A stretch of 64,000 nucleotides of DNA, from positions 2,151 through 66,150 of the forward strand of contig JAHBVY010000010.1 of the NCBI GenBank assembly GCA_019637265.1, written 5' to 3'. The notes under the pieces were generated by a model. That model saw only the letters and a list, made by a program, of their open reading frames with translations. It had not been told where the DNA came from and made no database searches. Shown here piece after piece: positions 15,027-38,575 of the stretch (position 1 is its first letter; the number at the start of each line of letters is the position of its first letter). Made by a program: the position numbers and the translations under genes. This DNA is from Polyangiaceae bacterium. GTDB lineage: Bacteria; Myxococcota_A; Polyangia; Polyangiales; Polyangiaceae.

Positions 15027-16178
15027 ATGCCTGGCGCACCCACGACCTCGAAGGAGAAGCAGCTGGCTTGGCTCGGCGTGAGCCTGTGGGCCATCGGCTG
15101 CCTGATCGGGTCCTTCTTCTTGTTCTGGATGTTCATCGTCACCCCGGCGATGACGGACTACTTCGGGGAGATCCTGTTCGCGCAGGTGATCGCGGCGATG
15201 TTCGCGATCCCCGCCTGCTTGGTCTACATGACCGTCCCCTGGATCGTGGACCGCTTCGACCCGGAGCCGTGGTGGGCGCTCGCGATGGCGTTCCTCTGGG
15301 GCGCGCTGGCGGCGGCGGGCTTCTCTGGCTTCATCAACACGATGATGGGCACCCTGGGCTACGCCATCGCCGGGAAGGGTGGCGGTGACTTCTTCGGCGC
15401 GGTGATCAGCGCGCCGCTGGTGGAAGAGGCGTTCAAGGGCATGGCCGTGCTCGGCATGTTCTGGTTCATGCGCCGCGAGTTCGACGGCGTCGTGGACGGC
15501 ATGATCTACGGCGTGTTCGCGGCGCTCGGCTTCGCGATGACGGAGAACGTGCTCTACTACTCGAGCGCGATCGCCAAGGGGAACATCGCGGGCACCGGCG
15601 CTGGTGAGTTCACCTTCCAATTCGTGATGCGCGGGATCCTGAAGCCGTGGGGGCACCCGCTGTACACCGCCATGATCGGGCTCGGAGTGGGCCTCGCGCG
15701 GGAGAGCACCAAGGGGTGGGTGAAGTGGGTCGCGCCCATCACGGGCTACTTCATTGGCGTGTTCTTCCACGCGCTGTGGAACTTCACCGCGGTGCTCAGC
15801 GGCTGGACGGGGATCCCCTTGGTCTTCTTGCTGCTCATCATGTACTTCATCGTGCTGATCCTCTTCATGTCGATGGTGATTTGGCTCGTCGCGCGCGAAG
15901 GGAAAACACTGCGCAAGAACCTCGAGGACGAGGTGCTGATGGGCAACATGACGAAGGAAGATTTGGACCTCATCTGCTCACCCTTCGGTCGCCTCAAAGG
16001 GCGCCTGCGCAAGGGCGCCAAGGGGCACCGCATGGTGATGGTGGGCGTGCGCCTGGGGATGGCCAAATGGCACGCCGCGCGCGCCATGAAAGGTCAGAAG
16101 CAGACCATCAGCATCCAGTCCATCGTGCCGCTCCGTCAGGAGCTGATCGCCCTGCGCCAAGAGCTGTACGGGCGCTGA
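15027..16178 (+). CDS. PrsW-family intramembrane protease
   Basis: Polytopic membrane protein with the PrsW signature motifs 'EEAFKG' (EExxK), 'FAMTE' (FxxxE) and 'HALWN' (HxxxN). The ORF opens at 14913, but its first codons are the dispersed repeat, so the ATG at 15027 is preferred. Confidence 0.8.
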   Translation: MPGAPTTSKEKQLAWLGVSLWAIGCLIGSFFLFWMFIVTPAMTDYFGEILFAQVIAAMFAIPACLVYMTVPWIVDRFDPEPWWALAMAFLWGALAAAGFSGFINTMMGTLGYAIAGKGGGDFFGAVISAPLVEEAFKGMAVLGMFWFMRREFDGVVDGMIYGVFAALGFAMTENVLYYSSAIAKGNIAGTGAGEFTFQFVMRGILKPWGHPLYTAMIGLGVGLARESTKGWVKWVAPITGYFIGVFFHALWNFTAVLSGWTGIPLVFLLLIMYFIVLILFMSMVIWLVAREGKTLRKNLEDEVLMGNMTKEDLDLICSPFGRLKGRLRKGAKGHRMVMVGVRLGMAKWHAARAMKGQKQTISIQSIVPLRQELIALRQELYGR

Positions 16179-24346: not shown

Positions 24347-26659
24347 ATGGCGGCTTCGCAGCTCAGGCTTGGCGCGCTGCTCGTCCTCGCGCTCGTGGGG
24401 GCGAGCGCGTCCAACGCTCACGCCGAGCCCGCGCAGCTCACGCCACCACGCCCCATCAGCTCCACCCACGTGGAGCCACCGAGTGGCGCACAGGGCGACG
24501 CCACGGTGCTGCTCGAGCTCACCATCGACGCGCATGGCGTGGTGACGGCGGCGCGCGTCATCAGCGGTGACGAGCCGTACGCCAGCCGCGCGAAGGAAGC
24601 TGCCCTGACTTGGCGCTTCCGTCCCGCGCTGCGCGGCCAGAAGCCGGTGGCCTCGCGGGTGCGCTTCCAAGTCCAGTTCACCCGCGAGGCGCCCGACCCG
24701 GCGGACGACGGCGCCGCGAGCGACGTGGACGCGCCGCCCGACGCTCGAGACAAGGACACGGATGAAACACCCGGCGGCGATGGCGCGGGTGGTGATGCGA
24801 GCGCTGGGCCAGGCTCGCAGCCCACGGACGAGCCCACCGCCAAACAGGTGCCCGAGGACGAGGTGCTGGTGCTCGGCGCACGAACGCCCACCGGCGCCAC
24901 CCGCATGAGCCGCGCGGAGGTGCGGCAGCTCCCGGGCGCCTTCGGTGATCCGTTCCGCGCCATCGACGCACTGCCCGGCGTGACGCCCATCTTCAGCGGG
25001 GTGCCGTTCTTCTTCGTGCGCGGCGCGCCGCCGGGCAACGTGGGCTACTTCCTCGACGGCATCCGCGTGCCGCTGCTCTACCACATTGGGCTCGGCCCCT
25101 CCGTGGTGCACCCCGGCATCGTCAAAGACGTTGACTTGTACCCAGGTGGCTACCCGAGCCGCTTCGGCCGCTTCGCGGGTGGCGTCGTCTCCGGGGAGAC
25201 GGCGGAGCCGCGCACCGACGCCTTGCATGGTGAAGCCAACGTGCGCCTGGTGGACGCCGGTGCCTTGGTGGAGGCGCCGTTCGCGAACGGCCGCGGCACC
25301 GCGCTCGCGGGCGGCCGCTACAGCTACACCGGGCTCATGATCTCGGCCTTCGCGCCGGAGGCGATCCTCCGTTACTGGGACTACCAAGCGCGCGCTAGCT
25401 ACGAGCTCACGTCGGATGACACGCTGACCTTGTTCAGCTTCGGCGCCTACGACTACCTCGGCGAGCGGCGAGACGGCGAGGTGGAGACGTTCTTCAACAC
25501 CGAGTTCCACCGCATCGATCTCCGTTGGGATCGGCGCGTGAGCGCGAGCATGAGCACGCGCACGGCGCTCTACGTGGGGCTCGACAAAACCGAGGTGGAG
25601 GACGGTCAGTTCGTGCGCGACCGCACCATCAACCTCCGCCACGCCTTGCGCGATCAAACATTCGATGACCTGACGATGACCGCTGGCTTCGACGCGGCGC
25701 TGGACTACTACGACGTGCAGTTCGAGGTAGGCGACGACGAGGACGACGACCGCCTGGATGAGTTGGTCCCTGGGCGCACGGATTGGGTGATCGGAAGCTA
25801 TGGGCAACTCGAGTGGCGCCCGGAGCCTTGGTTCACGCTCACGCCGGGGCTGCGCTTCGACCTCTACTACTCGAACGGGGATCTCGCGTTCGCCGCGGAG
25901 CCGCGCGTTTCAGCGCGCTACGAGGTGACGCCCAGCGCGCGCCTGCTGCACGCGCTGGGGCTGGCGCACCAGCCGCCCTCCTTCGTGGTGCCCGTGCCCG
26001 GCTTTCAAATCGCGGGGCTCGACCGCGGGCTACAGCGCGCGCTGCAACACAGCGCGGGGGTGGAGGTGGATTTACCTGGGCGCTTCACCGGCAGCCTCAC
26101 GGCCTTCCACAACACCTTCTTCAATATGACGGACGCGCTCGGCACGTCGCAGCAAGACGACTCCGCGAACGACGACTTCCTGCGCCGGAGCTTGGGGCAC
26201 TCGTACGGCTTGGAGGTGTACCTGAGGCGGCGCCTGACGGAGCGAGTGGGGGGCTTCATCTCGTACACGCTGTCGCGCTCGGAGCGCAGCCTGCGGCGCG
26301 TCAAGTTCGCCTCTCGCTTCGACCGCACCCACGTGCTGAACGCCGCGCTCTCCTTCGACCTCGGCCGGCGCTGGCGCGCCGGCGGACGCTTCATGTTCTA
26401 CTCGGGCTTCCCCGTGGACACGGATCAGGGGCTTATGCGCATCCCCCCCTTCTGGCGCCAGGACCTACGGCTAGAGAAGCGCTGGCGCCTCGGCGAGCGC
26501 GGCTCCTGGGCGCTGGTGTTCGAGGTCGCCAACGCCACCCTCAACAAAGAGCCGTTCGACCTCGAGTGCTACCCCACCACCAGCGGCGGCTCCATCTGCC
26601 GCACCGAGGAGATGGGCCCCGTCACCATCCCAAGCATCGGGCTGGAGGCGTTCTTCTAA
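24347..26659 (+). CDS. TonB-dependent outer-membrane receptor with an N-terminal TonB-C-like domain
   Basis: Signal peptide, a TonB_C-like segment ('[41 protein letters not shown]'), a plug domain ('[27 protein letters not shown]'), a long beta-barrel, and a terminal Phe ('...SIGLEAFF'). Confidence 0.8.
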
Positions 26660-28074
26660 GCCGCTTCTGCCGCTCTGCCGCGCTCGCGCAGCGCGGTGAG
26701 GATGGCGTCCACGTTCTTCTTGGCGTCGCCGAACAGCATGCGGGTGTCTTCCATGTAGAAAAGTGGGTTGTCCACGCCGGCGTAGCCGGAGGCCATGCTG
26801 CGCTTCATCACCACCGTCACCTTGGAGCGCCACACCTCGAGCACGGGCATGCCGTAGATGGGGCTCGCTGCGTCGCTCAGGGCGCCGGGGTTCACGATGT
26901 CGTTCGCGCCGATCACCAGCACCACGTCCGTCTCGGGGAAATCGGCGTTGATCTCATCCATCTCGAGCACGATGTCGTAAGGCACCTTGGCCTCTGCCAA
27001 GAGCACGTTCATGTGCCCCGGGAGCCTGCCCGCCACCGGGTGGATCGCGAACCTCACCTCGGCGCCGCGGGCGCGGAGCAGCTTGGTCACCTCGAACAGC
27101 GGGTGCTGCGCCTGAGCCACCGCCATGCCGTAGCCGGGGACGATCACCACGCTCCGCGCCTCCGCCATCAGCTCGGCCACCTCATCCGCCGTGAGCGGCG
27201 TGGGCTCGCCCACCGGCGCCGCGCCGTGAGTCGGCGCCGCGCCCTCGGCGGCGCCGAAGCCGCCGAAGATGACGCTCGCGATCGAGCGGTTCATGGCGCG
27301 GCACATGATGTAGCTGAGGATGGCGCCGCTCGAGCCCACCAAGGCGCCGGTGATGATCAAGAGATCGTTCGAGAGCATGAAGCCCGCGGCCGCGGCCGCC
27401 CAGCCCGAGTAGCTGTTCAGCATCGACACCACGACCGGCATGTCGGCGCCGCCGATGGCCACCACCAGGTGCACGCCGAGCACACAGGCCAGCGCCGTCA
27501 TGATCCCGAGCGACATGAGGCCCAGGGGCTCTGATACCGCGAGGAAACGCCACAGCAGGTAGCCCGAGGCGGCGACGATCAAGAGGTTTATCACGTGGCG
27601 CCCCGGCAAGAGCAGCGGGCTGCCGCTGAGGCTGCCGCGGAGCTTGGCGAAGGCGATGACGGAGCCCGTGAAGGTGACGGCGCCGACGAACACCCCGATG
27701 AAGATCTCCACCTGATGGATGGTGTGCTCCACCCCGGTGAGCGCCTGCCCCGGCGCGAGGTAAGTCGCGAACCCGACCAACACCGCCGCCGCGCCGACGA
27801 AGCTATGCAAGATGGCGACGAGCTCCGGCATGCTCGTCATCGCCACCCGCGCCGCGAGCGTGGCGCCGATCAGCGCGCCCACCACCACCACCCCCGCGAG
27901 CAACGGGTAGCCGCCGGACATGCGCGCCGCGGTGGCCCCGATGGCGAGCAAGATGCCGAGCGCGCCGTACAGGTTCCCGCGCCGCGCCGACTCCTGAGAG
28001 CTGAGCCCGCCCAGGCTCAAGATGAAGAGCACCCCCGCTGCGATGTAAGCGACCGTCGTCAGACCTTGCGTCAC
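26656..28074 (-). CDS. pntB: NAD(P) transhydrogenase subunit beta
   Basis: N-terminal multi-TM domain plus a C-terminal NADP(H)-binding dIII domain ('...[15 protein letters not shown]...'); 472 aa. Confidence 0.9.
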
Positions 28075-28081
28075 GCGAGCC

Positions 28082-29641
28082 TCACTTCTGGAACATGCGG
28101 AGCATGCGCTGGGTGACCAAGAAGCCTCCAGCGATGTTGATGGTGGCGAGCAGCACCGCCGCGGCGCTGAGCCACGTGGCGGCGCTCGTGAGCGGGCCCC
28201 CCAGCGTCAGCATGCCGCCGACGATGATGATGCCGCTCACCGCGTTGGTGACGCTCATGAGCGGCGTGTGCAGCGCCGGCGTCACGTTCCACACCACCTG
28301 CCACCCCACGAAGCACGCGAGCACGAACACCGTGAGGTGACCGAGGAAGGCCGGCGGCGCCACCAGGCCCAGCAGGGCGAGCAGCGCCCCGCAGCAAGCG
28401 AGCCCCAGCGCGCTCTGCTTCGCGCGGCGCCGCGCGATCACCGCAGGCTCCGGCGGCGGGGCGATGGGCTTCGGCGCCGGCTCGATAGGCGGCGCCGGCG
28501 GCGCCTCCCGCTTCGGCGGTGGCCAGCAGAGCTGACCTTCATCCAGCACCAAGGCGCCGCGCACCACCTCGTCCTCTTTATCTACGCGGAAATTTTCGCC
28601 GCCGCCCATGTCCGTGAGCAGGTGCACCAGGTTGGTGCCGTACAGCTGGCTCGCGGTGGGCGCGAGGCGGCTCGGTAAGTCCACGTAGCCGATGACGCTC
28701 ACGCCTTGGTGAACGGTCAGCTCACCTGGCACCGTGAGCTCGCAGTTGCCGCCCGCCTCGGCCGCCAAATCCACCACCACGCTCCCGGGGCGCATCAGCT
28801 CGAGCGCCTGACGGGTGATCAGGGTGGGCGCCGGGCGCCCGGGGATCAGCGCGGTGGTGATGATGATGTCCACCTCGCGCGCCTGCGCCTCGAACAGCGC
28901 CATCTCCGCGTCGATGAACGCCTGGCTCATCTGCTTGGCGTAGCCCCCCTCACCGGTGCCGTCCTCCTCGAACGCGAGGTCGAGGAACTCCGCGCCCATG
29001 CTCTCCACCTGCTCCTTCACCGCCGGGCGCGTGTCGAAGGCGCGCACGATGGCGCCGAGGCCGCGCGCCGCGCCGATCGCCGCGAGCCCAGCGACGCCCG
29101 CGCCGATCACGAGCACCTTGGCGGGCGGCACCTTCCCCGCCGCCGTGATCTGCCCCGTGAAGAAGCGCCCGAACGCCGCCGCCGCCTCCACCACCGCGCG
29201 GTAGCCAGCGATGTTCGCCATCGAGCTCAGCGCGTCCATCTTCTGCGCCCGGCTGATGCGCGGGATTTGGTCCATCGCGATCACCGTCGCGCGGCGCGCC
29301 GCCAAGCGATCGAGGAGCGGGCCCGCCTGCGCCGGCCAGATGAAGCTGATGAGCGTGGCGCCCTCGCGGAGCAGCTCGGCCTCATGCACCCCGAGCTCGG
29401 ACGATTCGACAGGTGGCCTCACCTTGAGCACCACGTCCGACGCCGACCAGAGCGACCGCGCGTCGGGCACGAGCTCTGCGCCCGCCTCCGCGTACTGAGC
29501 ATCGGGGAACGACGCCAACGCGCCGGCTCCAGCCTCGATCAGCACCTCGAACCCGAGCTTGATCAGGCGCTTCACCGTCTCTGGCGTCGCGGCGACGCGC
29601 CGCTCACCTTCCGCGATCTCCCGCGGGACACCTAGCTTCAT
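28082..29641 (-). CDS. pntA: NAD(P) transhydrogenase subunit alpha (fused alpha1+alpha2)
   Basis: N-terminal alanine-dehydrogenase-like dI domain ('[26 protein letters not shown]', '[17 protein letters not shown]') and a C-terminal 4-TM segment. Confidence 0.9.
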
Positions 29642-29988
29642 CCGTCTCCTCCGATCGCGTCCGCTCGGTCGGTTTCCGCGCGGCGCTCGAGCCTCGAATG
29701 CTCGTCTCCTGATAGCCAGCTTCAGCGCTCCCTACCAGCTGAAGTCACGCCTAATCTGGATCCGCGCGGATGTGCCGCGCCCCAGCGCCAAAGCGCGTCA
29801 CCCGCCGTTCATTCTCGAAGGGGGGTTGGGGGTTGGTACCGCCGCTTCGCGCTGCGCGTCGCTGCAGTCACCGCGAGACGGCACCTAGGGTGGCGATACG
29901 CGTCGCCTCGATGGCACACCGAGCGGACCGCGGTGAGCAGACGAGCGCTGCCCGTACAGTGAGCGGACGTCCAGTGCCCGCTTGGTGC

Positions 29989-30018
29989 GGTGCCGTCCAA
30001 CCCCAAAACCCAAGACCC
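29989..30018 (+). promoter_or_regulatory. copy (b) of GGTGCCGTCCAACCCC motif with a CAAAACCCAAGACCC tail
   Basis: Exact 16-mer, ~150 bp upstream of the yqiJ-like gene and in the same orientation. A degenerate reverse copy (GGCGGTACCAACCCCCAACCCCCC) at 29818..29843 points toward pntA. Confidence 0.35.
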
Positions 30019-30170
30019 GATCGAACAGGCGCTCGAAGCCCTCGCGAGGAGGCAGGAAGCGCGCGCTCGCGACGTAGAACGCCTGCGCGCGAGGACGCGA
30101 TGAGCGCCCCAGAATTTTTTGCGCAACTCACGGCGGACTCTGACTAACCTCGCCGCCGGGGGCGCCACCG

Positions 30171-30836
30171 ATGACCGAGTTCTTGCAAGCCAGCCTCAGC
30201 TACCCAGCGGTGCTGTTCACCGGCTTGCTGTCGCTGATGCTCATCTACTGGCTGCTCGTGATCTTGGGCGCCGTGGGGCTCGACGCGCTGGGCGGCGCGG
30301 AGGACGTCGATCTCGATCTGGAGGGCGTGGAGCTGGGCGCCTCGGACATCGACGCGCCGAGCGCCTTCAGCTTGCGGCGGGTGCCGCTCACGGTGGCGCT
30401 GTCTTTGATCGCGTTCTGGGGGTGGCTGTTCACCCACCTGGGCTCGCACTACCTGCTGCCTATCTCGGGGCTCTCCCGCGGCATCACCGGCACGCTGCTG
30501 CTCGCCGCCAGCGCGGTGCTCGCCTACTTCATCACTCGTCTGCTCACCGTACCACTCGCGCCGCTGTTCCACACGCATCACGCGACGAGCCGTGACGACC
30601 TGGTCGGCCGCGTGATCACGGTGCGCACGGGCCGGGTGGATCGCGAGTACGGTCAAGGGCTGCTGGACGAGGACGCTCACGCGCTGCTGCTCGAGATCCG
30701 CTGCGACTCCGAGCGCGAGCTGAAGCGCGGTCAACGCGTGATGATCATCTCCATCGAGGACGACGTGTACGAGGTGGAGCCCATCGACGATCTGCTGGGC
30801 GCCCCAGGGGCCGCGCAAGCAGGGCGCCACCGCTAG
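30171..30836 (+). CDS. YqiJ/NfeD-like inner-membrane protein with C-terminal OB-fold
   Basis: Several N-terminal transmembrane helices, and a C-terminal soluble beta-rich domain ('VGRVITVRTGRVDREYGQGLLDEDAHALLLEIRCDS...GQRVMIISIEDDVYEVEPI') typical of NfeD-short/YqiJ partners of SPFH proteins. It sits immediately upstream of the flotillin gene. Confidence 0.6.
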   Translation: MTEFLQASLSYPAVLFTGLLSLMLIYWLLVILGAVGLDALGGAEDVDLDLEGVELGASDIDAPSAFSLRRVPLTVALSLIAFWGWLFTHLGSHYLLPISGLSRGITGTLLLAASAVLAYFITRLLTVPLAPLFHTHHATSRDDLVGRVITVRTGRVDREYGQGLLDEDAHALLLEIRCDSERELKRGQRVMIISIEDDVYEVEPIDDLLGAPGAAQAGRHR

Positions 30837-30904
30837 CGAAGAAGTGACGGGGGCTGTGACGCCCAGAAGTGATCGGCGCCGCGAGCGCCAGAACGAGGTA
30901 CCGA

Positions 30905-33097
30905 ATGAACTTTGAGCTCTCCACCTTCGTGATAGGCATCGGCGCGATCGCCGCCGTGGTCATCGGCCTGCTGCTCTTGGTCACCCGCTTCTACCGGAAG
31001 GTGGACCAGGGGCAGGCGCTGATCGTCAACACCATGCGCGCCGAGCCGATCGTCACCTTCACCGGCAAGGTCGTGATCCCGGTGTTCCACCGCGCGGAGG
31101 TGATGGACATCTCGGTGAAGAGCATCGACCTCGACCGCCGCGGCCAAGAGGGCCTCATCTGCAAGGATAATATCCGCGCGGATATCAAGGTGACCTTCTT
31201 CGTGCGCGTCAACAAGACGAGCCAAGACGTGCTGAAGGTGGCGCAGTCGATCGGCAGCCGCCGCGCCAGCCACCAAGACACGCTGGAGCAGCTCTTCAAC
31301 GCCAAGTTCGGCGAGGCGCTGAAGACGGTGGGTAAGTGGCTCGAGTTCGAGGAGCTCTACACCAAGCGCGAGGAGTTCCGTGACCGCATCATCGAGGTCA
31401 TCGGCAAGGACCTGAACGGCTTCGTCTTGGAGGACGCCGCCATCGACTACCTGGAGCAGACCTCGCTCGCCTCGCTCGACCCCTCCAACATCTTGGACTC
31501 GCAGGGCATCCGGAAGATCACCGAGATGACCGCGCACATGAACGTCAAGACCAACGAGCTCAAGCAGGAGGAGCGCAAGGCCATCCACAAGAAGAACGTG
31601 GAGGCCCAAGAGACCATCCTCGAGCTCGAGCGTCAGCAGGCGGACGCGGAGGCCAAGCAGCAGCGTGAGATCGCCACGCTGCGCGCCCGCGAAGAGGCGG
31701 AGACGCTGAAGATTCAGGCGGAGGAGCGCCGGCGCTGGGAGCTCGCGCGCATCAAGCAAGAGGAAGAGGTCGCCATCCAGAACGAGAACCGCCTGCGTCA
31801 GGTGGAGGTCGCTCAGAAGAACCGCGAGCGCGTGGTGGGCGTGGAGTCCGAGCGCGTCGAGAAGGATCGCGCGCTCGAGGCCATCAGCCGCGAGCGTGAG
31901 GTGGAGCTGCAGCGCATCGAGAAGGAGAAGGCGCTGGAGGTGGAGCGCAAGCACATCGCCGACGTGGTGGCGGCGCGCATCGCCGTCGAGAAGTCCGTCG
32001 CGGAGGAGGAGGAGCGCATCAAGGATTTGCGCGTGATCGCCGAGGCCAAGCGCCTGCGGGAGTCCGTGGTGATCAGCGCCGAGGCCGCCGCGCAAGAGAA
32101 GGTCACCCACAAGCTGAAGGAGGCGGAGGCCGAGGAGGTGGCGGCGCGCCACCAGGCCAAGCGCACCCTCACCCTGGCGGAGGCGGATTTCGAGGCCTCG
32201 GACAAGCAGGCGCGCGCGAAGATCCGGCTGGCCGAGGCGACCCAGGCGGAGGTCGCCGCGGCGGGCCTCGCCGAGGTGAAGGTCAAGGAAGCTGACGCCA
32301 TCGCGATCGAGAAGGTGGGCACCGCGCAGGCGCGGATCACCCTGGAGACGATGCAGGCCGAGGCCAAGGGCGAAGAGGAGAAGGGGATGGTCACCGTCCG
32401 CCTGCGCAACGCCGACGCCGAGGCGGTGGAGCGCGTGGGCAAGGCCGAGGCGCTGGCCAAGCGCGAGATGCTGCTCGCCGAGGCTCAGGGCGAGGAGAGC
32501 AAGGGCCTCGCGGCCGCCAAGATCAAGGAGGCGGACGCCGCCGCGACGGAGAAGCTGGGCGCCGCCGAGGCCGTCGCCATCCGCGAGAAGATGTCGGCGG
32601 AGGCCGTCGGGCTGCGGGAGAAGGCCGCCGCGATGCAGGCGCTGGACCCGCAGAGCCGCGCCCACGAGGAGTACCGCCTGCGCATCGACAAGGCGACCGA
32701 GGTGGAGCTCGCCGCGCTCCAGACGCGCCAGCAGATCGCGGAGCACCAGGCCAAGGTGCTCGGCTCCGCCATGGGCCAGGCGAAGATCAACATCGTGGGC
32801 GGGGACGGTCAGTTCTTGGACCGCTTCTTCAAGACGGTGAGCCTGGGCGTCTCGGCCGACGGCGCCCTCGATCAGAGCGACTCGCTGAAGAGCGTGTTCC
32901 GCGAATACTTGGACGGCGACGCCAGCCTGCGGGAGGACGTGAAGCAGGTGCTGAGCAGCCCCGGCTTCAGCAGCGAGGCGCTGAAGAACCTCTCCATCGC
33001 TGGGGTGCTCCACAAGCTGATGGGTGAGCTCAGCGACGAGGAGCGCCCGAAGCTCGCGGCGCTGCTCGAGCGCGCCAAGGAGCTCGGCCTGAAGTAG
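30905..33097 (+). CDS. flotillin-family SPFH/band-7 protein (YqiK-like)
   Basis: N-terminal TM anchor, an SPFH domain ('VVIPVFHRAEVMDISVKSIDLDRRGQEGLICKDNIRADIKVTFFVRVN'), and a very long Glu/Ala/Lys-rich coiled coil of EA-repeat flotillin type. Start is placed at the internal ATG (MNFELSTF). Confidence 0.85.
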   Translation: MNFELSTFVIGIGAIAAVVIGLLLLVTRFYRKVDQGQALIVNTMRAEPIVTFTGKVVIPVFHRAEVMDISVKSIDLDRRGQEGLICKDNIRADIKVTFFVRVNKTSQDVLKVAQSIGSRRASHQDTLEQLFNAKFGEALKTVGKWLEFEELYTKREEFRDRIIEVIGKDLNGFVLEDAAIDYLEQTSLASLDPSNILDSQGIRKITEMTAHMNVKTNELKQEERKAIHKKNVEAQETILELERQQADAEAKQQREIATLRAREEAETLKIQAEERRRWELARIKQEEEVAIQNENRLRQVEVAQKNRERVVGVESERVEKDRALEAISREREVELQRIEKEKALEVERKHIADVVAARIAVEKSVAEEEERIKDLRVIAEAKRLRESVVISAEAAAQEKVTHKLKEAEAEEVAARHQAKRTLTLAEADFEASDKQARAKIRLAEATQAEVAAAGLAEVKVKEADAIAIEKVGTAQARITLETMQAEAKGEEEKGMVTVRLRNADAEAVERVGKAEALAKREMLLAEAQGEESKGLAAAKIKEADAAATEKLGAAEAVAIREKMSAEAVGLREKAAAMQALDPQSRAHEEYRLRIDKATEVELAALQTRQQIAEHQAKVLGSAMGQAKINIVGGDGQFLDRFFKTVSLGVSADGALDQSDSLKSVFREYLDGDASLREDVKQVLSSPGFSSEALKNLSIAGVLHKLMGELSDEERPKLAALLERAKELGLK

Positions 33098-33186
33098 CGC
33101 CCTGGGCGGCGCGTTTCGGGTGCAGCCCCTAGCTGTTGGATTCGAGGCGCGCCGATGGCGACCCCTGCAAGTCAGGTACCCTGAGC

Positions 33187-36100
33187 ATGGCGGACACAGA
33201 CAACAAGCCGGCGGGCGGCGCGGAGGTCGAGGGCGGCAGCTACGAGATCATCCGCGCGCGGCTCTTGGAGCAGGCGCGTCGCTTGGGCGAGCGCGCCGAG
33301 CAGCTGAACGAGCGGCGCCGCGAGACCTTCGGTGGTCAGGAGCTCACCCTACTTGGCAACGAGCGCGTGCGCACCGCCAACAACTGCGTGCCGCGCGACA
33401 TCGTGATGGTCCAGGGCAAGCTGCTGTTCGGCTACAACGTGTTCATCGGGCTCCGCACCGAGACGCAGGTGTCGGACGTGCTGAGCCTGCACCGCTTCGT
33501 CAAGTCAGATGACGGCTTCGACGTGGGGGAGCTCCCGGCGGACGCTCCCGCGCGACAGTTCCTGGAGGACGCGCGCTTCCAAGAGCACTTCGTCGAGCTC
33601 TACAAATACTACAAGGACGCGCGCCTGATTCAGCTGTCCCGCGGGGACGGCAAGCTGCTCGCGGTGTTCCAAATTGGCGGGGGCATCGACGACATCCGCG
33701 TCTTCCGCTGGACGCTCGATGCGAGCGGGCAAGCGAGCTACGTCGATAACCGCGGGGAGCGCGACTACACCTTCCCGCCGGCGCAGGACTTCGAGTGGAC
33801 GACCACCACGCGCGATCAGCACGTGGGCGGCAAGCACCCCCACATCAACATCCTGGATGAGGTGTTCGTCGAGTGCAGCGACGGCGACCTCACCATCAAG
33901 ATCGAGGACAACACCGAGACGGGGAAGGGCATCTACGCCGAGCCGGTGGACGAGCCGCGCCAGGCCCTGGACGATGGTCAGTTTGCCTATGCAAAACTCG
34001 GCCACCTGATCCTCTTGAAGGTGCTGCCGTACAACGAGCGCATTTGGCGCTACCTGGTGTACGCCACGCGGCCGCGCACCGTGGTGCGCATCGACGCCAT
34101 CGGCACCGCCTGCGTGCAGCTCCCGGAGGACCACGGCGTCATCTTCCCGGGCGGCTACGTGCTGATGGATGGTCAGCACAAAGTCTTTGATGGCGATTTC
34201 ACGGGCTACGTCTTCAAGCGCCTGGTGCGCTCCCCCAACGGCGAAGACGTGCTGTACGTCTTCTACCACCGCGCGACGGGTCAGTACGCGCTCTTCTCCT
34301 ACAACCTCATCCGCAAAGAGGTTCAAAATCCCATCCTCTGCACCGGCTACACGCTGTTCGACGACGGGCGGCTCGTCGTGTTCCGGCAGTCATCGGACGA
34401 GGCCACGCGCGTCCACCCGATGCAGTTCTGGCAGACACCGTTCGTCTCTCAGGAGTACGCCGCGGCGCAGCCAGCCAAGGGCGGCGCCTTGGGTAAGATC
34501 GGCAACGCCGAGCTGGTGCACGGCATCAGCGACTGCCTGAGCATCCGCCGCATGATCGCCGAGACGGAGCCCACTCGGCAGATCTACGAGGACCTGATCG
34601 GCGCGGTGGTCCGCGCTCAGGACGACTACTTCTGGCTCGGTCAGGAGGAGGCGCTCGATCTCCTCTCGGTGCTCACCGAGATCAAGAGCACCGCCGAGCT
34701 CATCGTCGATGAGTTCGACAAAGTCACCGCCATCAAGCAGCGCGCCGTCACCGCCCTGAGCGAGGCGGTGGCCAAGCAAGAGGCGCTGCTCACCGGCATC
34801 CGCCCCGGCTCCTTCACCCGCGTGGAGCAGTTCATGAGCGCCCTCACGGAGCTCAGGAACCAGCGCGGGCACCTGATCGGGCTGCGTGAGCTGCGCTACA
34901 TGGACACGGAGCGCGTCGTCGAGCTCGAGCAGCGGGTGGTGCAAGAGTTCGATCTGGTGAGCCGCGCCACGGCGGACTTCCTCCAGGGAGACGCCGCCCT
35001 CGCGCCGCTCACCCAGCAGCTCACGGAGCTGCTCGAGGCGATCGAGCAGGTGACCAAGACGCCCGAGCTCGTCCCGCTCGCCGAGCGCGTGGAGGCGACC
35101 GGCGAAGGGCTCACGGTGATGAGCGAGGTGGTGGGCACGCTGGAGGTGGCGGACCCCACGGCGCGCACCGAGATCCTCGAGCGCATCAGCGAGGTGTTCG
35201 GCGGGCTCAACCGCGTGCGCGCCACGCTGCACAGCCGCCGCCGCGCGCTGCAGTCCGCGGAGGGGCAAGCGGAGTTCGCCGCGCAGTTCAAGCTGCTCGG
35301 CCAGAACGTGCAGAGCAGCATCAGCCTGGCGGACACGCCGGTGGCCTGTGAAGAGCAGCTCGCGCGCCTGATGGTGCAGCTCGAGGAGCTCGAGGCGAAG
35401 TTCAGTGAGTTCGACGACTTCGTCGCGGAGCTCGCCGGCAAGCGCGATGAGATCTACGAGGCCTTCAACCAGAAGAAGCAGCAGCTGCTCGACGAGCGCG
35501 CCCGGCGCGCCCAGAACTTAGTCCAGGCAGCTGACCGCATCCTGAGCGGCGTCGCGCGGCGGAGCCTCACCTTCACCGACGACCAGTCGCTGAACGCGTA
35601 CTTCGCCAGCGACCCCATGGTGCTCAAGGTGCGCGACCTCGCGGCGCGCCTGACGGAGCTGGAGGAGGCGCCCAAGGCCGATGAGCTCGAGTCCCGGCTC
35701 AAGCAGGCGCGCCAAGACGCGCTGCGCGGGCTGCGGGACCGCTCGGAGCTGTTCGAAGGCAGCGGCGGCGCCGAGCTGATCCGCCTGGGGCGGCACCGCT
35801 TCTCCGTCAATAGTCAGACGATCGAGCTGACCTTGCTGCCCACCAGCTCCGAGTCGGGCCAGGTGGAGATGATGCTGTCCCTCACCGGGACGGACTTCCG
35901 CGAGCCGGTGGACGACCCGGAGTTCAACCGCTACCGCGACTACTGGGAGCAACAGCTCGTCAGCGAAACGAATGAAGTGTACCGCGGCGAGTACCTGGCC
36001 GCGCTGATCCTGAGGCAAGCTTCGCGAGGCGAAGAGGGCCTCAGCATCCAAGCGCTGCACGACGCGGAGCGCACCGAAGGCAGCCTGGAGGAGCTGGTGC

Positions 36101-38502
36101 GCCGCATCGCCGCCGCGCGCTACGACGAGGGCTATGAGCGCGGCCTGCACGACGCGGACGCCGCCAAGATCTTGCGCGGCGTGCTCACGCTGCGTGAGTC
36201 CGCGGGGCTGCTGCGCTTCTCCCCGGAGACCCGCGCGCTGGCGACCTGGTACTGGGCGAGCCTGGCGCGCGGGGGTGAGTCGGAGCGGCGCGCGCAGGGC
36301 TCTTGGCAGCGCCGCGCGCAGAGCCTGGGGCGGCTCTCGGAGCGGCTGGGGGACCGCGCGGGGCTCACGCAGCTAGCCACCGAGCTCACGCCGGCGCTCC
36401 GCGGTTTCGCGGAGGAGGTGGGGCTCACGGAGCTAGCGGAGCGCGCCGCCGCGGCCGCGAGTTACCTGGTGGAGGAGCTGGCGGCGGAGCGCGTGAGCTT
36501 CATCGTCAGTGAAGCTGCTCAAGAGCTGCGCTCGCGGCTGACGATGGAGCTCGATCAGAGCGGCGCGCTCGGCGCCTTCAAGGCGGATTTACAGCAGCTC
36601 GAGGGGGAGCCAGGCGCGCAGCTCCAGCTGGTGCGCGCGTGGCTCTCGGCGGTCGCGGAGCGCTCGTCGACGCCATCGCTGCAGCCGGGCGCCACGGGGC
36701 ACGCCCAGCCCATCGCGACCGAGGCCGCGGTGTTCATGCTGAGCGAACGGCTGGTCGATCACACGCCGAGCTCCGGGCGCACCGAGCTCGAGGTCACCGG
36801 GCTGCTCGGCGATCACCGCCGCCTGGCAAACGGCAGCCTCGCGCTCCGCATCGACGAGTTCGAGGCGCGCCTCGGCCACTTCCTCGACGTGCGAGTGCCG
36901 GGCTTCCGCGCCTTCCGCGCGGCGCGCCAGGCGCTGCTCGAGCGCGAGCGCGCGCGGCTCCGGCTCGACGAGTTCAAGCCGAAGGTGCTGAGCTCCTTCG
37001 TCCGCAACCGCCTGATCAACGAGGTGTACCTGCCGCTCATCGGTGACAACTTCGCCAAGCAGCTCGGCGCCGCGGGGGACGCGAAGCGCACCGACCTGAT
37101 GGGCATGCTGCTGCTCATCTCGCCGCCCGGCTACGGCAAGACCACGCTGATGGAGTACGTCGCGAGCCGGCTGGGGCTGGTGTTCATGAAGGTGAACGGC
37201 CCCGCGCTGGGCCACGCCGTGCACAGCCTGGATCCAAGCGAGGCGCCCAACGCCACCGCGCGCCAAGAGGTGGACAAGATCAACCTGGCGCTCGAGATGG
37301 GCAACAACGTGATGCTGTACCTGGATGACATCCAGCACACGCACCCCGAGCTGCTCCAGAAGTTCATCTCGCTCTGCGATGCGCAGCGCAGGATCGAGGG
37401 GGTTTGGCGAGGCAAAACACGCACCTACGACCTGCGCGGGAAGCGCTTCTGCGTGGTCATGGCCGGCAACCCCTACACGGAGTCCGGCGACAAATTCCAA
37501 ATCCCGGACATGCTCGCGAACCGCGCGGACACCTACAACCTGGGTGACGTCTTGGACGGTCGGGACGAGGTGTTCGCGCTCAGCTACATCGAGAACGCCG
37601 TCACCTCGAACAGCGTGCTGGCGCCGCTCGCCAGCCGCAGCCAGAAAGATCTCTACACCTTCATCCGCATCGCGAAGGGTGAAGAGGTGCCGTCATCCGA
37701 GCTGACGAGCGACTACTCCGCCGTGGAGGTCTCTGAGATTCGCGGGGTGCTCGAGCGCCTGTTCAAGGTGCAAGAGGTGCTGCTCAAGGTGAACCTGGCG
37801 TACATCGCCTCGGCGTCCATGGACGACAAGTTCCGCACGGAGCCGCCGTTCAAGCTCCAAGGCAGCTACCGCAACATGGCGAAGCTGGCGGAGAAGGTGG
37901 TCTCCGCCATGAACGACGCCGAGCTGGTGTCGCTCATCGACGATCACTACGCTGGGGAGTCACAAACCCTGACGAGCGGCGCCGAGCAGAACCTCTTGAA
38001 GCTGGCGGAGCTGCGCGGCACCTTGTCGCCGGAGCAAGCGGCGCGCTGGGCGGAGATCAAGCAGGGCTTCAAGCGCCACCTGGACCTCGGTGGCAGCGAT
38101 ACGGATCCGGTGGTGCGCGTCACCTCCCAGCTCACGAACCTCGCGGAGCAGCTGAGCTCGATCCGCGACACCATCAGCGGCGTCGCGGCCAAGAGCCCCG
38201 ATCAGCTGAGCTGGGTGCAGGCGCACGTGCAGGCGCTGAACGAGTCGCTCGCGCGCCTCACGGAGCCCAAGGTGGCGCTCACGGTGAAGAACGAAGCGCC
38301 GCCGCACATCGACGAGCTGCTGTCGATGCAGATCAAGGTCATGGAGCAAACGCTGGTGCCCTTCGTGCGCGTCGCCACCCAGCGGCTCGACGACAGTCAC
38401 CTGCTCCGAGAGCGCCTCGACGAGTTCATCGAGCAGGTCAAGGGGATCGACCTGCGACTCAAGGGCGCGCTCGGCCCCGGCTACGGCACGGACAAGCCGT
38501 GA
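33187..38502 (+). CDS. giant (~1770 aa) protein with a C-terminal MoxR/dynein-clade AAA+ ATPase domain; N-terminal ~1300 aa of unknown fold
   Basis: Walker A 'LISPPGYGKTTLMEY', Walker B 'NVMLYLDDIQ', and a sensor-1/helix-2-insert-like segment 'CVVMAGNPYTESGDKFQIPDMLANRADTYNL' that parallels the MoxR pattern ATQNP-E--G---LP-A-LDRF. There are long coiled-coil stretches in the N-terminal region. It is co-directional with, and 89 bp downstream of, the flotillin gene. Confidence 0.8.
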   Translation: MADTDNKPAGGAEVEGGSYEIIRARLLEQARRLGERAEQLNERRRETFGGQELTLLGNERVRTANNCVPRDIVMVQGKLLFGYNVFIGLRTETQVSDVLSLHRFVKSDDGFDVGELPADAPARQFLEDARFQEHFVELYKYYKDARLIQLSRGDGKLLAVFQIGGGIDDIRVFRWTLDASGQASYVDNRGERDYTFPPAQDFEWTTTTRDQHVGGKHPHINILDEVFVECSDGDLTIKIEDNTETGKGIYAEPVDEPRQALDDGQFAYAKLGHLILLKVLPYNERIWRYLVYATRPRTVVRIDAIGTACVQLPEDHGVIFPGGYVLMDGQHKVFDGDFTGYVFKRLVRSPNGEDVLYVFYHRATGQYALFSYNLIRKEVQNPILCTGYTLFDDGRLVVFRQSSDEATRVHPMQFWQTPFVSQEYAAAQPAKGGALGKIGNAELVHGISDCLSIRRMIAETEPTRQIYEDLIGAVVRAQDDYFWLGQEEALDLLSVLTEIKSTAELIVDEFDKVTAIKQRAVTALSEAVAKQEALLTGIRPGSFTRVEQFMSALTELRNQRGHLIGLRELRYMDTERVVELEQRVVQEFDLVSRATADFLQGDAALAPLTQQLTELLEAIEQVTKTPELVPLAERVEATGEGLTVMSEVVGTLEVADPTARTEILERISEVFGGLNRVRATLHSRRRALQSAEGQAEFAAQFKLLGQNVQSSISLADTPVACEEQLARLMVQLEELEAKFSEFDDFVAELAGKRDEIYEAFNQKKQQLLDERARRAQNLVQAADRILSGVARRSLTFTDDQSLNAYFASDPMVLKVRDLAARLTELEEAPKADELESRLKQARQDALRGLRDRSELFEGSGGAELIRLGRHRFSVNSQTIELTLLPTSSESGQVEMMLSLTGTDFREPVDDPEFNRYRDYWEQQLVSETNEVYRGEYLAALILRQASRGEEGLSIQALHDAERTEGSLEELVRRIAAARYDEGYERGLHDADAAKILRGVLTLRESAGLLRFSPETRALATWYWASLARGGESERRAQGSWQRRAQSLGRLSERLGDRAGLTQLATELTPALRGFAEEVGLTELAERAAAAASYLVEELAAERVSFIVSEAAQELRSRLTMELDQSGALGAFKADLQQLEGEPGAQLQLVRAWLSAVAERSSTPSLQPGATGHAQPIATEAAVFMLSERLVDHTPSSGRTELEVTGLLGDHRRLANGSLALRIDEFEARLGHFLDVRVPGFRAFRAARQALLERERARLRLDEFKPKVLSSFVRNRLINEVYLPLIGDNFAKQLGAAGDAKRTDLMGMLLLISPPGYGKTTLMEYVASRLGLVFMKVNGPALGHAVHSLDPSEAPNATARQEVDKINLALEMGNNVMLYLDDIQHTHPELLQKFISLCDAQRRIEGVWRGKTRTYDLRGKRFCVVMAGNPYTESGDKFQIPDMLANRADTYNLGDVLDGRDEVFALSYIENAVTSNSVLAPLASRSQKDLYTFIRIAKGEEVPSSELTSDYSAVEVSEIRGVLERLFKVQEVLLKVNLAYIASASMDDKFRTEPPFKLQGSYRNMAKLAEKVVSAMNDAELVSLIDDHYAGESQTLTSGAEQNLLKLAELRGTLSPEQAARWAEIKQGFKRHLDLGGSDTDPVVRVTSQLTNLAEQLSSIRDTISGVAAKSPDQLSWVQAHVQALNESLARLTEPKVALTVKNEAPPHIDELLSMQIKVMEQTLVPFVRVATQRLDDSHLLRERLDEFIEQVKGIDLRLKGALGPGYGTDKP

Positions 38503-38554: not shown

Positions 38555-38575
38555 GGGCGGGTTTCAAACCCGCCC
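38555..38575. terminator. perfect 21-bp palindrome GGGCGGGTTTCAAACCCGCCC (copy 1 of a dispersed hairpin element); possible terminator of the giant gene
   Basis: The 10-bp GC stem hairpin lies 53 bp after the 38502 stop. The 27-mer GTAGGGGCGGGTTTCAAACCCGCCCGC recurs at 51690 exactly, and with one deletion at 51559. Confidence 0.4.

Follow-up and report, generated by a model that had tools for sequence, protein, structure and literature searches.

A flotillin operon with an added gene for a giant AAA+ protein is conserved across distant bacterial phyla

What bacterial flotillins do in the cell is a matter of debate; the SPFH and SPFH-NfeD complexes whose structures have been solved form membrane-anchored scaffolds or cages. 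The familiar gene pairs of this kind are yqiJ-yqiK of Escherichia coli and yuaF-floT of Bacillus subtilis. Here we describe a three-gene unit from a Polyangiaceae bacterium, found in a window of 64,000 nucleotides (the whole stretch of DNA analysed), in which the first two genes, g1 and g2, encode homologues of YqiJ and YqiK and are arranged as in these pairs, with order and orientation unchanged, and the third, g3, encodes a giant AAA+ protein. In E. coli K-12 there is no third gene, as sibD/ibsD follow yqiK, and at blastn sensitivity no g3-like DNA came to light in 5,426 E. coli genomes; the g2 protein is also ~180 aa longer than E. coli YqiK, with an extended Glu/Ala coiled coil. An initial annotation, made from the sequence of the window alone, had read the unit as a flotillin operon of the yqiJK kind to which a giant AAA+ protein has been added, a reading that both homology and gene linkage bear out.

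The closest described system is that of Ravi et al. 2024 (mSystems, PMC11237479), who identified a 'Betapropeller+Coiled-coil+AAA-ATPase' protein beside a Band-7/flotillin protein and a YqiJ-YuaF protein with three transmembrane (TM) segments, together with a CesT/Tir-PspA dyad, with Dokdonia donghaensis ANH61663.1 as an example operon (their Table S3), and who noted a wider distribution for abbreviated operons that lack PspA. They propose chaperone-like or membrane-dynamics roles, in one paragraph of prediction with no experiments. The three core genes of these operons have the same architectures and order, and are adjacent and co-directional, as in the window; in a Hymenobacter plasmid, a Bacteroidota example of the Ravi layout, the g3 homologue is 43% identical over 93% of its length. 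The full form includes the CesT/Tir-PspA dyad; the window lacks this dyad, and therefore holds an abbreviated operon, and it also lacks the PLD gene and the LexA-like regulator. As a computational finding the association is not new, and what is quantified here is its near-obligate linkage and the family-wide conservation of its motifs. No experimental study of the g3 family was found in the literature searched, nor any paper on DUF3686 or DUF7902 (PF12458/PF25472), nor one that mentions 'DNA repair ATPase' together with flotillin, and a survey of SPFH proteins in P. aeruginosa does not cover the family. The view in the initial annotation that a giant AAA+ partner of flotillin is uncharacterised consequently stands as far as experiments go, but not in the sense that the partner had escaped recognition.

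All three open reading frames lie on the plus strand with short gaps, where they had been annotated. The g1 gene spans 30171-30836 (221 aa), g2 spans 30905-33097 (730 aa from its ATG, with a GTG at 30869 as a possible start giving 742 aa) and g3 spans 33187-38502 (1,771 aa from its ATG, with a TTG at 33136 as a possible start giving 1788 aa). In homologue alignments the ATG starts at 30905 and 33187 coincide with the invariant first Met, and with these starts the gaps are 68 bp between g1 and g2 and 89 bp between g2 and g3.

To quantify the linkage, a genome collection was scanned with the g3 alignment, which confirmed 566 relatives; the best 80 loci were examined, plasmid records added further carriers, and the linkage was assessed over 86 loci. 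Adjacency was scored with tblastn and hidden Markov model (HMM) searches on domain coordinates, with the end of g2 no more than 700 bp upstream of g3, and g1 no more than 400 bp upstream of g2. A g2 homologue lay directly upstream of g3 in 79 of the 81 loci with enough upstream DNA, and a g1 homologue directly upstream of g2 in 76/79. It is near-certain that the three genes are what we take them to be and that they are linked, and the linkage is not due to chance; relatives of the giant protein residing away from flotillin and NfeD-type genes, which would have spoken against the association, are not what the loci contain. The best 80 loci came from Myxococcota, many Actinomycetota, Gammaproteobacteria (Pseudomonas, Xenorhabdus, Limnobaculum, the Xanthomonas/Lysobacter group, Methylomonas and others), one betaproteobacterium and Planctomycetota, whilst plasmid carriers included Deinococcus, Hymenobacter (Bacteroidota), Streptomyces, Vibrio, Halomonas, Proteus and pQBR103. 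The triad spans at least six phyla, and its linkage holds in Myxococcota, Actinomycetota, Gamma- and Betaproteobacteria, Bacteroidota, Deinococcota and Planctomycetota. The order g1-g2-g3 is kept on the megaplasmids of Deinococcus, Streptomyces, Hymenobacter and Pseudomonas, and also in a divergent clade of metagenome loci (L092 and L093) whose g3 is 37% identical. In many actinobacterial loci the start codon of one gene shares 1 or 4 bp with the stop codon of the gene before it, and overlaps of this size are typical of translationally coupled subunits.

Most of the few exceptions retain the partners. In L020 and L079, g2 is still upstream of g3, pushed off by inserted unrelated or mobile-type genes, and in L010 and L013, g1 is found 0.8-1.6 kb upstream of g2; in L006 no g1 was found in the 842 bp available upstream. 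The inserts within the triad are varied: OmpA/TSP3 and DUF11 surface proteins in L020 (1600-7950), a pair of NYN and Pol-beta nucleotidyltransferase genes in L079 (4560-7940) and two Uma2 endonuclease genes in L009 (2660-5690), with the order and strand of the triad kept in each. These inserts were considered as conserved components and rejected, being unrelated or mobile-type genes. An apparent g1-g2 fusion in L076 was likewise rejected, as a TGA stop separates the two genes.

The wider neighbourhood of the triad differs between lineages. In 18 gammaproteobacterial loci, a gene pair encoding YjfI (CesT/Tir-like) and PspA/IM30 (YjfJ-type) lies immediately upstream of g1, and in about 10 gammaproteobacterial loci rhomboid protease and DUF2491 genes lie downstream of g3, such that the gammaproteobacterial triad is embedded in a yjfIJKLMC-like envelope-stress/polyamine operon. 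On pQBR103 (L081, 43-13247) and in loci L027-L076, the genes around the triad form a cluster of yjfI, pspA (yjfJ), rhomboid, DUF2491, DUF350, DUF1190 and glutathionylspermidine-synthase-like genes. The order on the Hymenobacter plasmid is Tir-chaperone, PspA, DUF1449, flotillin and 'DNA repair ATPase', beside a LexA-like regulator; this divergently oriented regulator (cHTH plus S24 peptidase) adjoins the operon both there (L082, 2580-3365) and in Dokdonia (Ravi 2024, Table S3), which hints at damage- or stress-inducible control of the Bacteroidota operons. On a Streptomyces linear plasmid (L085), the first gene of the triad is shortened to 144 aa, and a gene for a TerD family stress protein is found ~4 kb downstream of the triad (15131-15664).

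As direct searches of Pfam, NCBIfam and PDB sequences gave essentially nothing for the first two proteins, family profiles were built for g1 and g2 from orthologues in related loci and compared with the YqiJ and YqiK references taken from the annotated E. coli K-12 genome. In the g1 protein, TM1, the first of three predicted TM helices, is followed by an acidic loop, and the C-terminal part is a soluble domain rich in beta structure; the family alignment (29 members) shows the TM segments and the C-terminal domain to be conserved. Its profile (29 sequences) aligned to E. coli YqiJ at hhalign 95.2% (E 2.5e-8, 130 columns) across TM2-TM3 and the C-terminal soluble domain, and the orthologue from Hymenobacter carries the annotation 'DUF1449 family protein'; on profile comparison g1 is thereby demonstrated to be a remote YqiJ homologue, an inner-membrane protein of the DUF1449 type. 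The relationship is remote because curated models match only one of the 29 members (YqiJ_N, 8e-5) and the window protein itself matches none in Pfam or NCBIfam at E <= 0.1. The NfeD Pfam model was matched by no family member, and a profile search against PDB sequences returned nothing at E <= 0.4. Of the YqiJ/NfeD-like character first assigned to g1, the YqiJ part is upheld but the NfeD part is not, with neither an NfeD model nor a solved NfeD domain matched; the g1-NfeD link rests on the YqiJ/YuaF relationship given in the literature (Ravi et al. 2024, PMC11237479).

The g2 protein begins with a TM anchor, followed by an SPFH domain and a long coiled coil rich in Glu and Ala, and ends in a flotillin region. 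Its profile (28 sequences) aligned to E. coli YqiK at hhalign 99.9% (E 5e-34, 412 columns, ~31% identity), and its orthologues are annotated as 'SPFH domain-containing protein' or 'flotillin family protein'. Curated models and PDB sequences gave little: Pfam Band_7 was not matched at E <= 0.1, NCBIfam FloT matched residues 49-307 weakly (2e-6, 27 bits vs a cutoff of 700) and the profile search against PDB sequences gave no match at E <= 0.01. Judged by the YqiK alignment, g2 is clearly a YqiK-type flotillin, in line with its first description as a flotillin with an SPFH domain and a long Glu/Ala coiled coil.

The g3 protein is an exact match to a Polyangiaceae protein from an NCBI metagenome-assembled genome and has >5,700 homologues. 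Pfam recognises three regions in it, DUF3686 (33-482, E 1e-202), DUF7902 (604-686) and AAA_5/AAA (1308-1431); the AAA+ module is not the sole recognisable part, as first thought. The description of the first ~1300 aa as beta-rich at the start and coiled coil thereafter fits these regions, but the statement that this region holds no motif is superseded by DUF3686 and DUF7902. The DUF3686 region (residues 1-540; 33187-34806, plus strand) comprises a helix (13-48), a beta-rich domain of ~28 strands (54-416) and a helical bundle (422-538), and an AlphaFold2 model of residues 1-540 from a 49-sequence alignment was confident, with a predicted local distance difference test (pLDDT) of 87.6 and a predicted template modelling score (pTM) of 0.84. 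The modelled N-terminal domain is beta-propeller-like, which suits a protein-docking module. The N-terminal profile retrieved 990 proteins from 1.84 billion cluster representatives, of which the full-length ones were all 1,590-2,036 aa; DUF3686 therefore essentially always heads one architecture. DUF7902 (PF25472, E 2.8e-27; 34996-35244, plus strand) falls within the helical/coiled-coil middle of the protein (about 540-1190), and a weak SMC-like match to LmuB over residues 559-861 is consistent with a coiled coil. No TM segment was seen on direct reading of the g3 translation.

The AAA+ module (residues ~1290-1565; 37054-37881, plus strand) is matched by Pfam AAA_5, a model of the dynein/NorQ/CbbQ/McrB type, at 31 bits (cutoff 22) over 1308-1431, from Walker A to sensor 1, and by AAA at 29.9 bits (cutoff 21.2). 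Its motifs follow in canonical order: Walker A SPPGYGKTT (1312-1320), Walker B LYLDDIQH (1377-1384; DD, not DE), sensor-1 N1428, R1446 (within PDMLANRAD) at the place of the arginine finger, and R1562 (within LQGSYRNM) as a candidate for sensor 2. The strings SPPGYGKTT, DDIQH, MAGNPYTE, PDMLANRAD and LQGSYRNM are invariant in 83/83 relatives, and with them GYGKT, the DD pair, N1428, R1446 and R1562; the three strings originally quoted for g3, PPGYGKTT, LYLDDIQ and AGNPYTESGDKFQIPDMLANRAD, are present and are invariant or nearly so in the same relatives. The g3 ATPase site must therefore be under strong selection. The catalytic Glu of Walker B is replaced by Asp in all 83 members (D1380-D1381, window positions 37324-37329), which points to ATP hydrolysis that is slow or regulated throughout the family.

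Assignment of the module to a clade was more difficult. Foldseek placed RuvB and Skd3/ClpB first, then NorQ, MCM, Lon and CbbQ, and the structural neighbours overall comprised NorQ, ClpB, ClpA, Skd3, midasin, CbbQ, Lon and RuvB. When the 83-sequence core profile was compared with seven E. coli references by hhalign, RuvB (95.7), FtsH (90.7), ClpX (90.4) and Lon (87.4) ranked highest, followed by McrB (69.3) and PspF (30.1), with RavA the lowest of the seven (14.6%); alignment lengths varied, Lon being the longest at 129 columns and FtsH covering just 34. Against PDB sequences, the profile aligned solely the stretch from the P-loop to 'NGP' of the classical AAA proteins NVL, Rix7 and p97. The predicted structure, at an overall pLDDT of 62.9, has a hairpin at 1402-1415, between alpha3 and beta4, whilst its beta2-alpha2 connection (local pLDDT about 76-80) is a 16-residue loop and short helix with no hairpin. 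The module thus probably falls in the pre-sensor-1-hairpin supergroup, where NorQ/CbbQ/midasin and ClpB/Lon/RuvB are equally near to it. The narrower label given at first, a MoxR-clade protein with a helix-2 insert, is not established: Pfam AAA_3 was not matched, RavA, the archetype of MoxR proteins, was the weakest reference, ClpB, ClpA, Lon and RuvB were equally close, and the model lacks a beta2-alpha2 hairpin. Compared with the MoxR-type pairs RavA-ViaA, NorQ-NorD and CbbQ-CbbO, g3 is many times larger and has no VWA partner gene. Such a partner is usual, if not strictly defining, in MoxR systems; a VWA domain was absent from the scanned neighbours in the window, and the conserved neighbours of g3 are g1 and g2, with YjfI, PspA, rhomboid and DUF2491 in addition in Gammaproteobacteria.

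The similarity to RuvB bears on the name of the family, which is 'DNA repair ATPase' at NCBI and 'ATPase involved in DNA repair' in Pfam (PF12458). Were the name correct, g3 would be a true DNA repair enzyme that lies by chance beside genes for membrane proteins, and these source names are the only direct support for this. A RuvB_N match at 26.7 bits, under the cutoff of 27, covers the Walker A region only, and the LexA-like regulator adjoining the Bacteroidota operon could be read in the same sense; yet the similarity to RuvB and to PDB sequences is confined to ~45 residues around the P-loop, Pfam and NCBIfam find no DNA-binding, nuclease or helicase domain in g3, its obligate partners are a flotillin and a three-TM protein, and no paper was found that backs the name. 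We consider a role in DNA repair very improbable. The name looks like a propagated misannotation, without support from domains, context or literature, and in our view probably derives from spurious or historic coiled-coil matches to COGs of the SbcC/RecN type.

The explanation we favour, with a probability of roughly 0.55, is that the triad is a membrane-stress module in which g3 remodels assemblies of flotillin and, in certain lineages, those of PspA as well. Here g1 and g2 would build a membrane-anchored SPFH scaffold or cage at the cytoplasmic face of the inner membrane, and g3 would be a cytoplasmic AAA+ ATPase whose propeller-like domain and long helical arm dock on that flotillin scaffold. 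The AAA+ ring may then spend ATP on remodelling the flotillin assemblies, whether it builds them up, takes them apart or extracts subunits; where CesT/Tir-PspA is co-encoded, g3 may also act on PspA polymers of the ESCRT-III type, and the whole triad would form part of an envelope/membrane-stress response. That the proteins interact physically, that the ATPase is what acts on the scaffold, and that the triad serves in a stress response are inferences. In favour of this explanation are the identities of the three proteins, their near-obligate gene linkage, the invariant ATPase motifs, the PspA genes beside the triad in Gammaproteobacteria and Bacteroidota, and the propeller-like N-terminal model. 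Several observations weigh against this explanation. Searches of the 64-kb window by tblastn and with HMMs detected no PspA or YjfI homologue, and the link to PspA is therefore indirect for this organism; the family-wide Glu to Asp change in Walker B means that ATP turnover may be slow and regulatory, not motor-like; the C-terminal model of the AAA+ region is of low confidence; and the patchy, plasmid-borne distribution of the triad would fit an accessory or conflict system as well.

The same linkage of g1, g2 and g3 also fits a different arrangement, in which the flotillin/YqiJ cage would serve as a platform that confines or gates g3, whose clients would be other membrane or membrane-proximal proteins to be unfolded, extracted or assembled. 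An SPFH cage enclosing an AAA+ enzyme has an established precedent in HflK/C-FtsH (PMC13220708), in which, as proposed for the triad, an SPFH scaffold and an inner-membrane AAA+ enzyme are functionally coupled, and unfoldases and disaggregases (ClpB, ClpA, Skd3 and Lon) are among the structural neighbours of the g3 module, with RuvB, FtsH, ClpX and Lon ranked above RavA by hhalign. However, FtsH is a membrane-anchored AAA protease of the classical clade within a periplasmic cage, whereas g3 contains neither a protease or other effector domain nor a TM segment, bears a propeller-like domain and a coiled-coil arm, and is partnered by a cytoplasm-facing flotillin. With no TM segment, g3 is less evidently enclosed by a cage than FtsH is. 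Nor does the neighbourhood offer a conserved substrate gene, beyond PspA/YjfI in some lineages. We regard the platform arrangement as less likely than the remodelling of flotillin assemblies, but as its main rival.

The distribution of the triad raises a further alternative, namely that it is an accessory conflict or anti-phage system of the abortive-infection kind, with flotillin/YqiJ as membrane effector or sensor and g3 as the switch. Its patchy occurrence over distant phyla and its presence on megaplasmids would agree with this, as would the selfish-type genes (Uma2, and NYN with a nucleotidyltransferase) occasionally found inside the triad, and the fact that PspA is a 'phage shock' protein. 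Against PADLOC-DB 2.0, however, g1 and g2 had no match and g3 had weak ones only (E >= 5e-4), to LmuB through the coiled coil and to IetA through the P-loop, and there was no homologue among 50,697 phage records. The genes next to the triad in the window have housekeeping functions (pntAB and a TonB-dependent receptor), no recognisable nuclease, toxin or pore-forming effector is present, and the recurrent partners of the triad are envelope-stress and polyamine genes, not defence genes, all of which makes a defence function unlikely.

Returning to the remodelling of flotillin and PspA assemblies, a conceptual analogy is provided by Vps4/ESCRT-III, and by PspF/PspA, where an AAA+ ATPase is encoded with a protein that forms polymers on membranes; the triad shares an operon with a gene for PspA, a member of the ESCRT-III superfamily, in the 18 gammaproteobacterial loci and in Bacteroidota. 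According to a 2025 review, no Vps4-like ATPase is known for bacterial PspA. We therefore offer, tentatively and with less confidence than the general remodelling role, the possibility that g3 is the bacterial counterpart of Vps4, a hexameric, propeller-armed ATPase that would disassemble and recycle flotillin cages and, where linked, PspA polymers too. If true, this would amount to an ATP-driven turnover cycle for bacterial membrane microdomains that is experimentally unrecognised so far.

In the window the triad is flanked by unrelated genes and is therefore bounded as a unit. Upstream lie the pntB/pntA transhydrogenase genes (26656-29641, minus strand), divergent from g1, and a gene for a TonB-dependent receptor; the downstream neighbour encodes a protein with weak PEGA/TPR similarity. 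In the 530-bp intergenic region between pntAB and g1 (29642-30170) no sigma-70-like promoter was detected. The receptor gene (24347-26659, plus strand, 770 aa) combines an N-terminal TonB_C-like domain with Plug and the TonB-dependent receptor barrel, which is an unusual fusion. Beyond g3, 53 bp past its stop codon, a G+C-rich hairpin (GGGCGGGTT-TCA-AACCCGCCC, 38555-38575, plus strand) with a 9-bp stem and 3-nt loop is present in both the minimum free energy and the centroid folds. It had been put forward as the probable terminator of the unit; the hairpin itself is real, but its role as terminator is unproven and it is best called a candidate terminator without a U-tract, having no T-run, not being called by a terminator scan and showing a folding z-score for its region of only -1.48, which is not thermodynamically exceptional.

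The triad is widespread and strikingly conserved, though its existence will be no surprise to the specialists who catalogued this type of operon. For the family, the 'DNA repair ATPase' annotation carried by >5,700 proteins is unsupported and probably misleading. The linkage predicts an energy-dependent step in the dynamics of flotillin or PspA scaffolds, and as g3 is almost never found without its flotillin and YqiJ partners, across at least six phyla, it offers a handle both on the role of bacterial flotillins and on the question of an ATPase for PspA.

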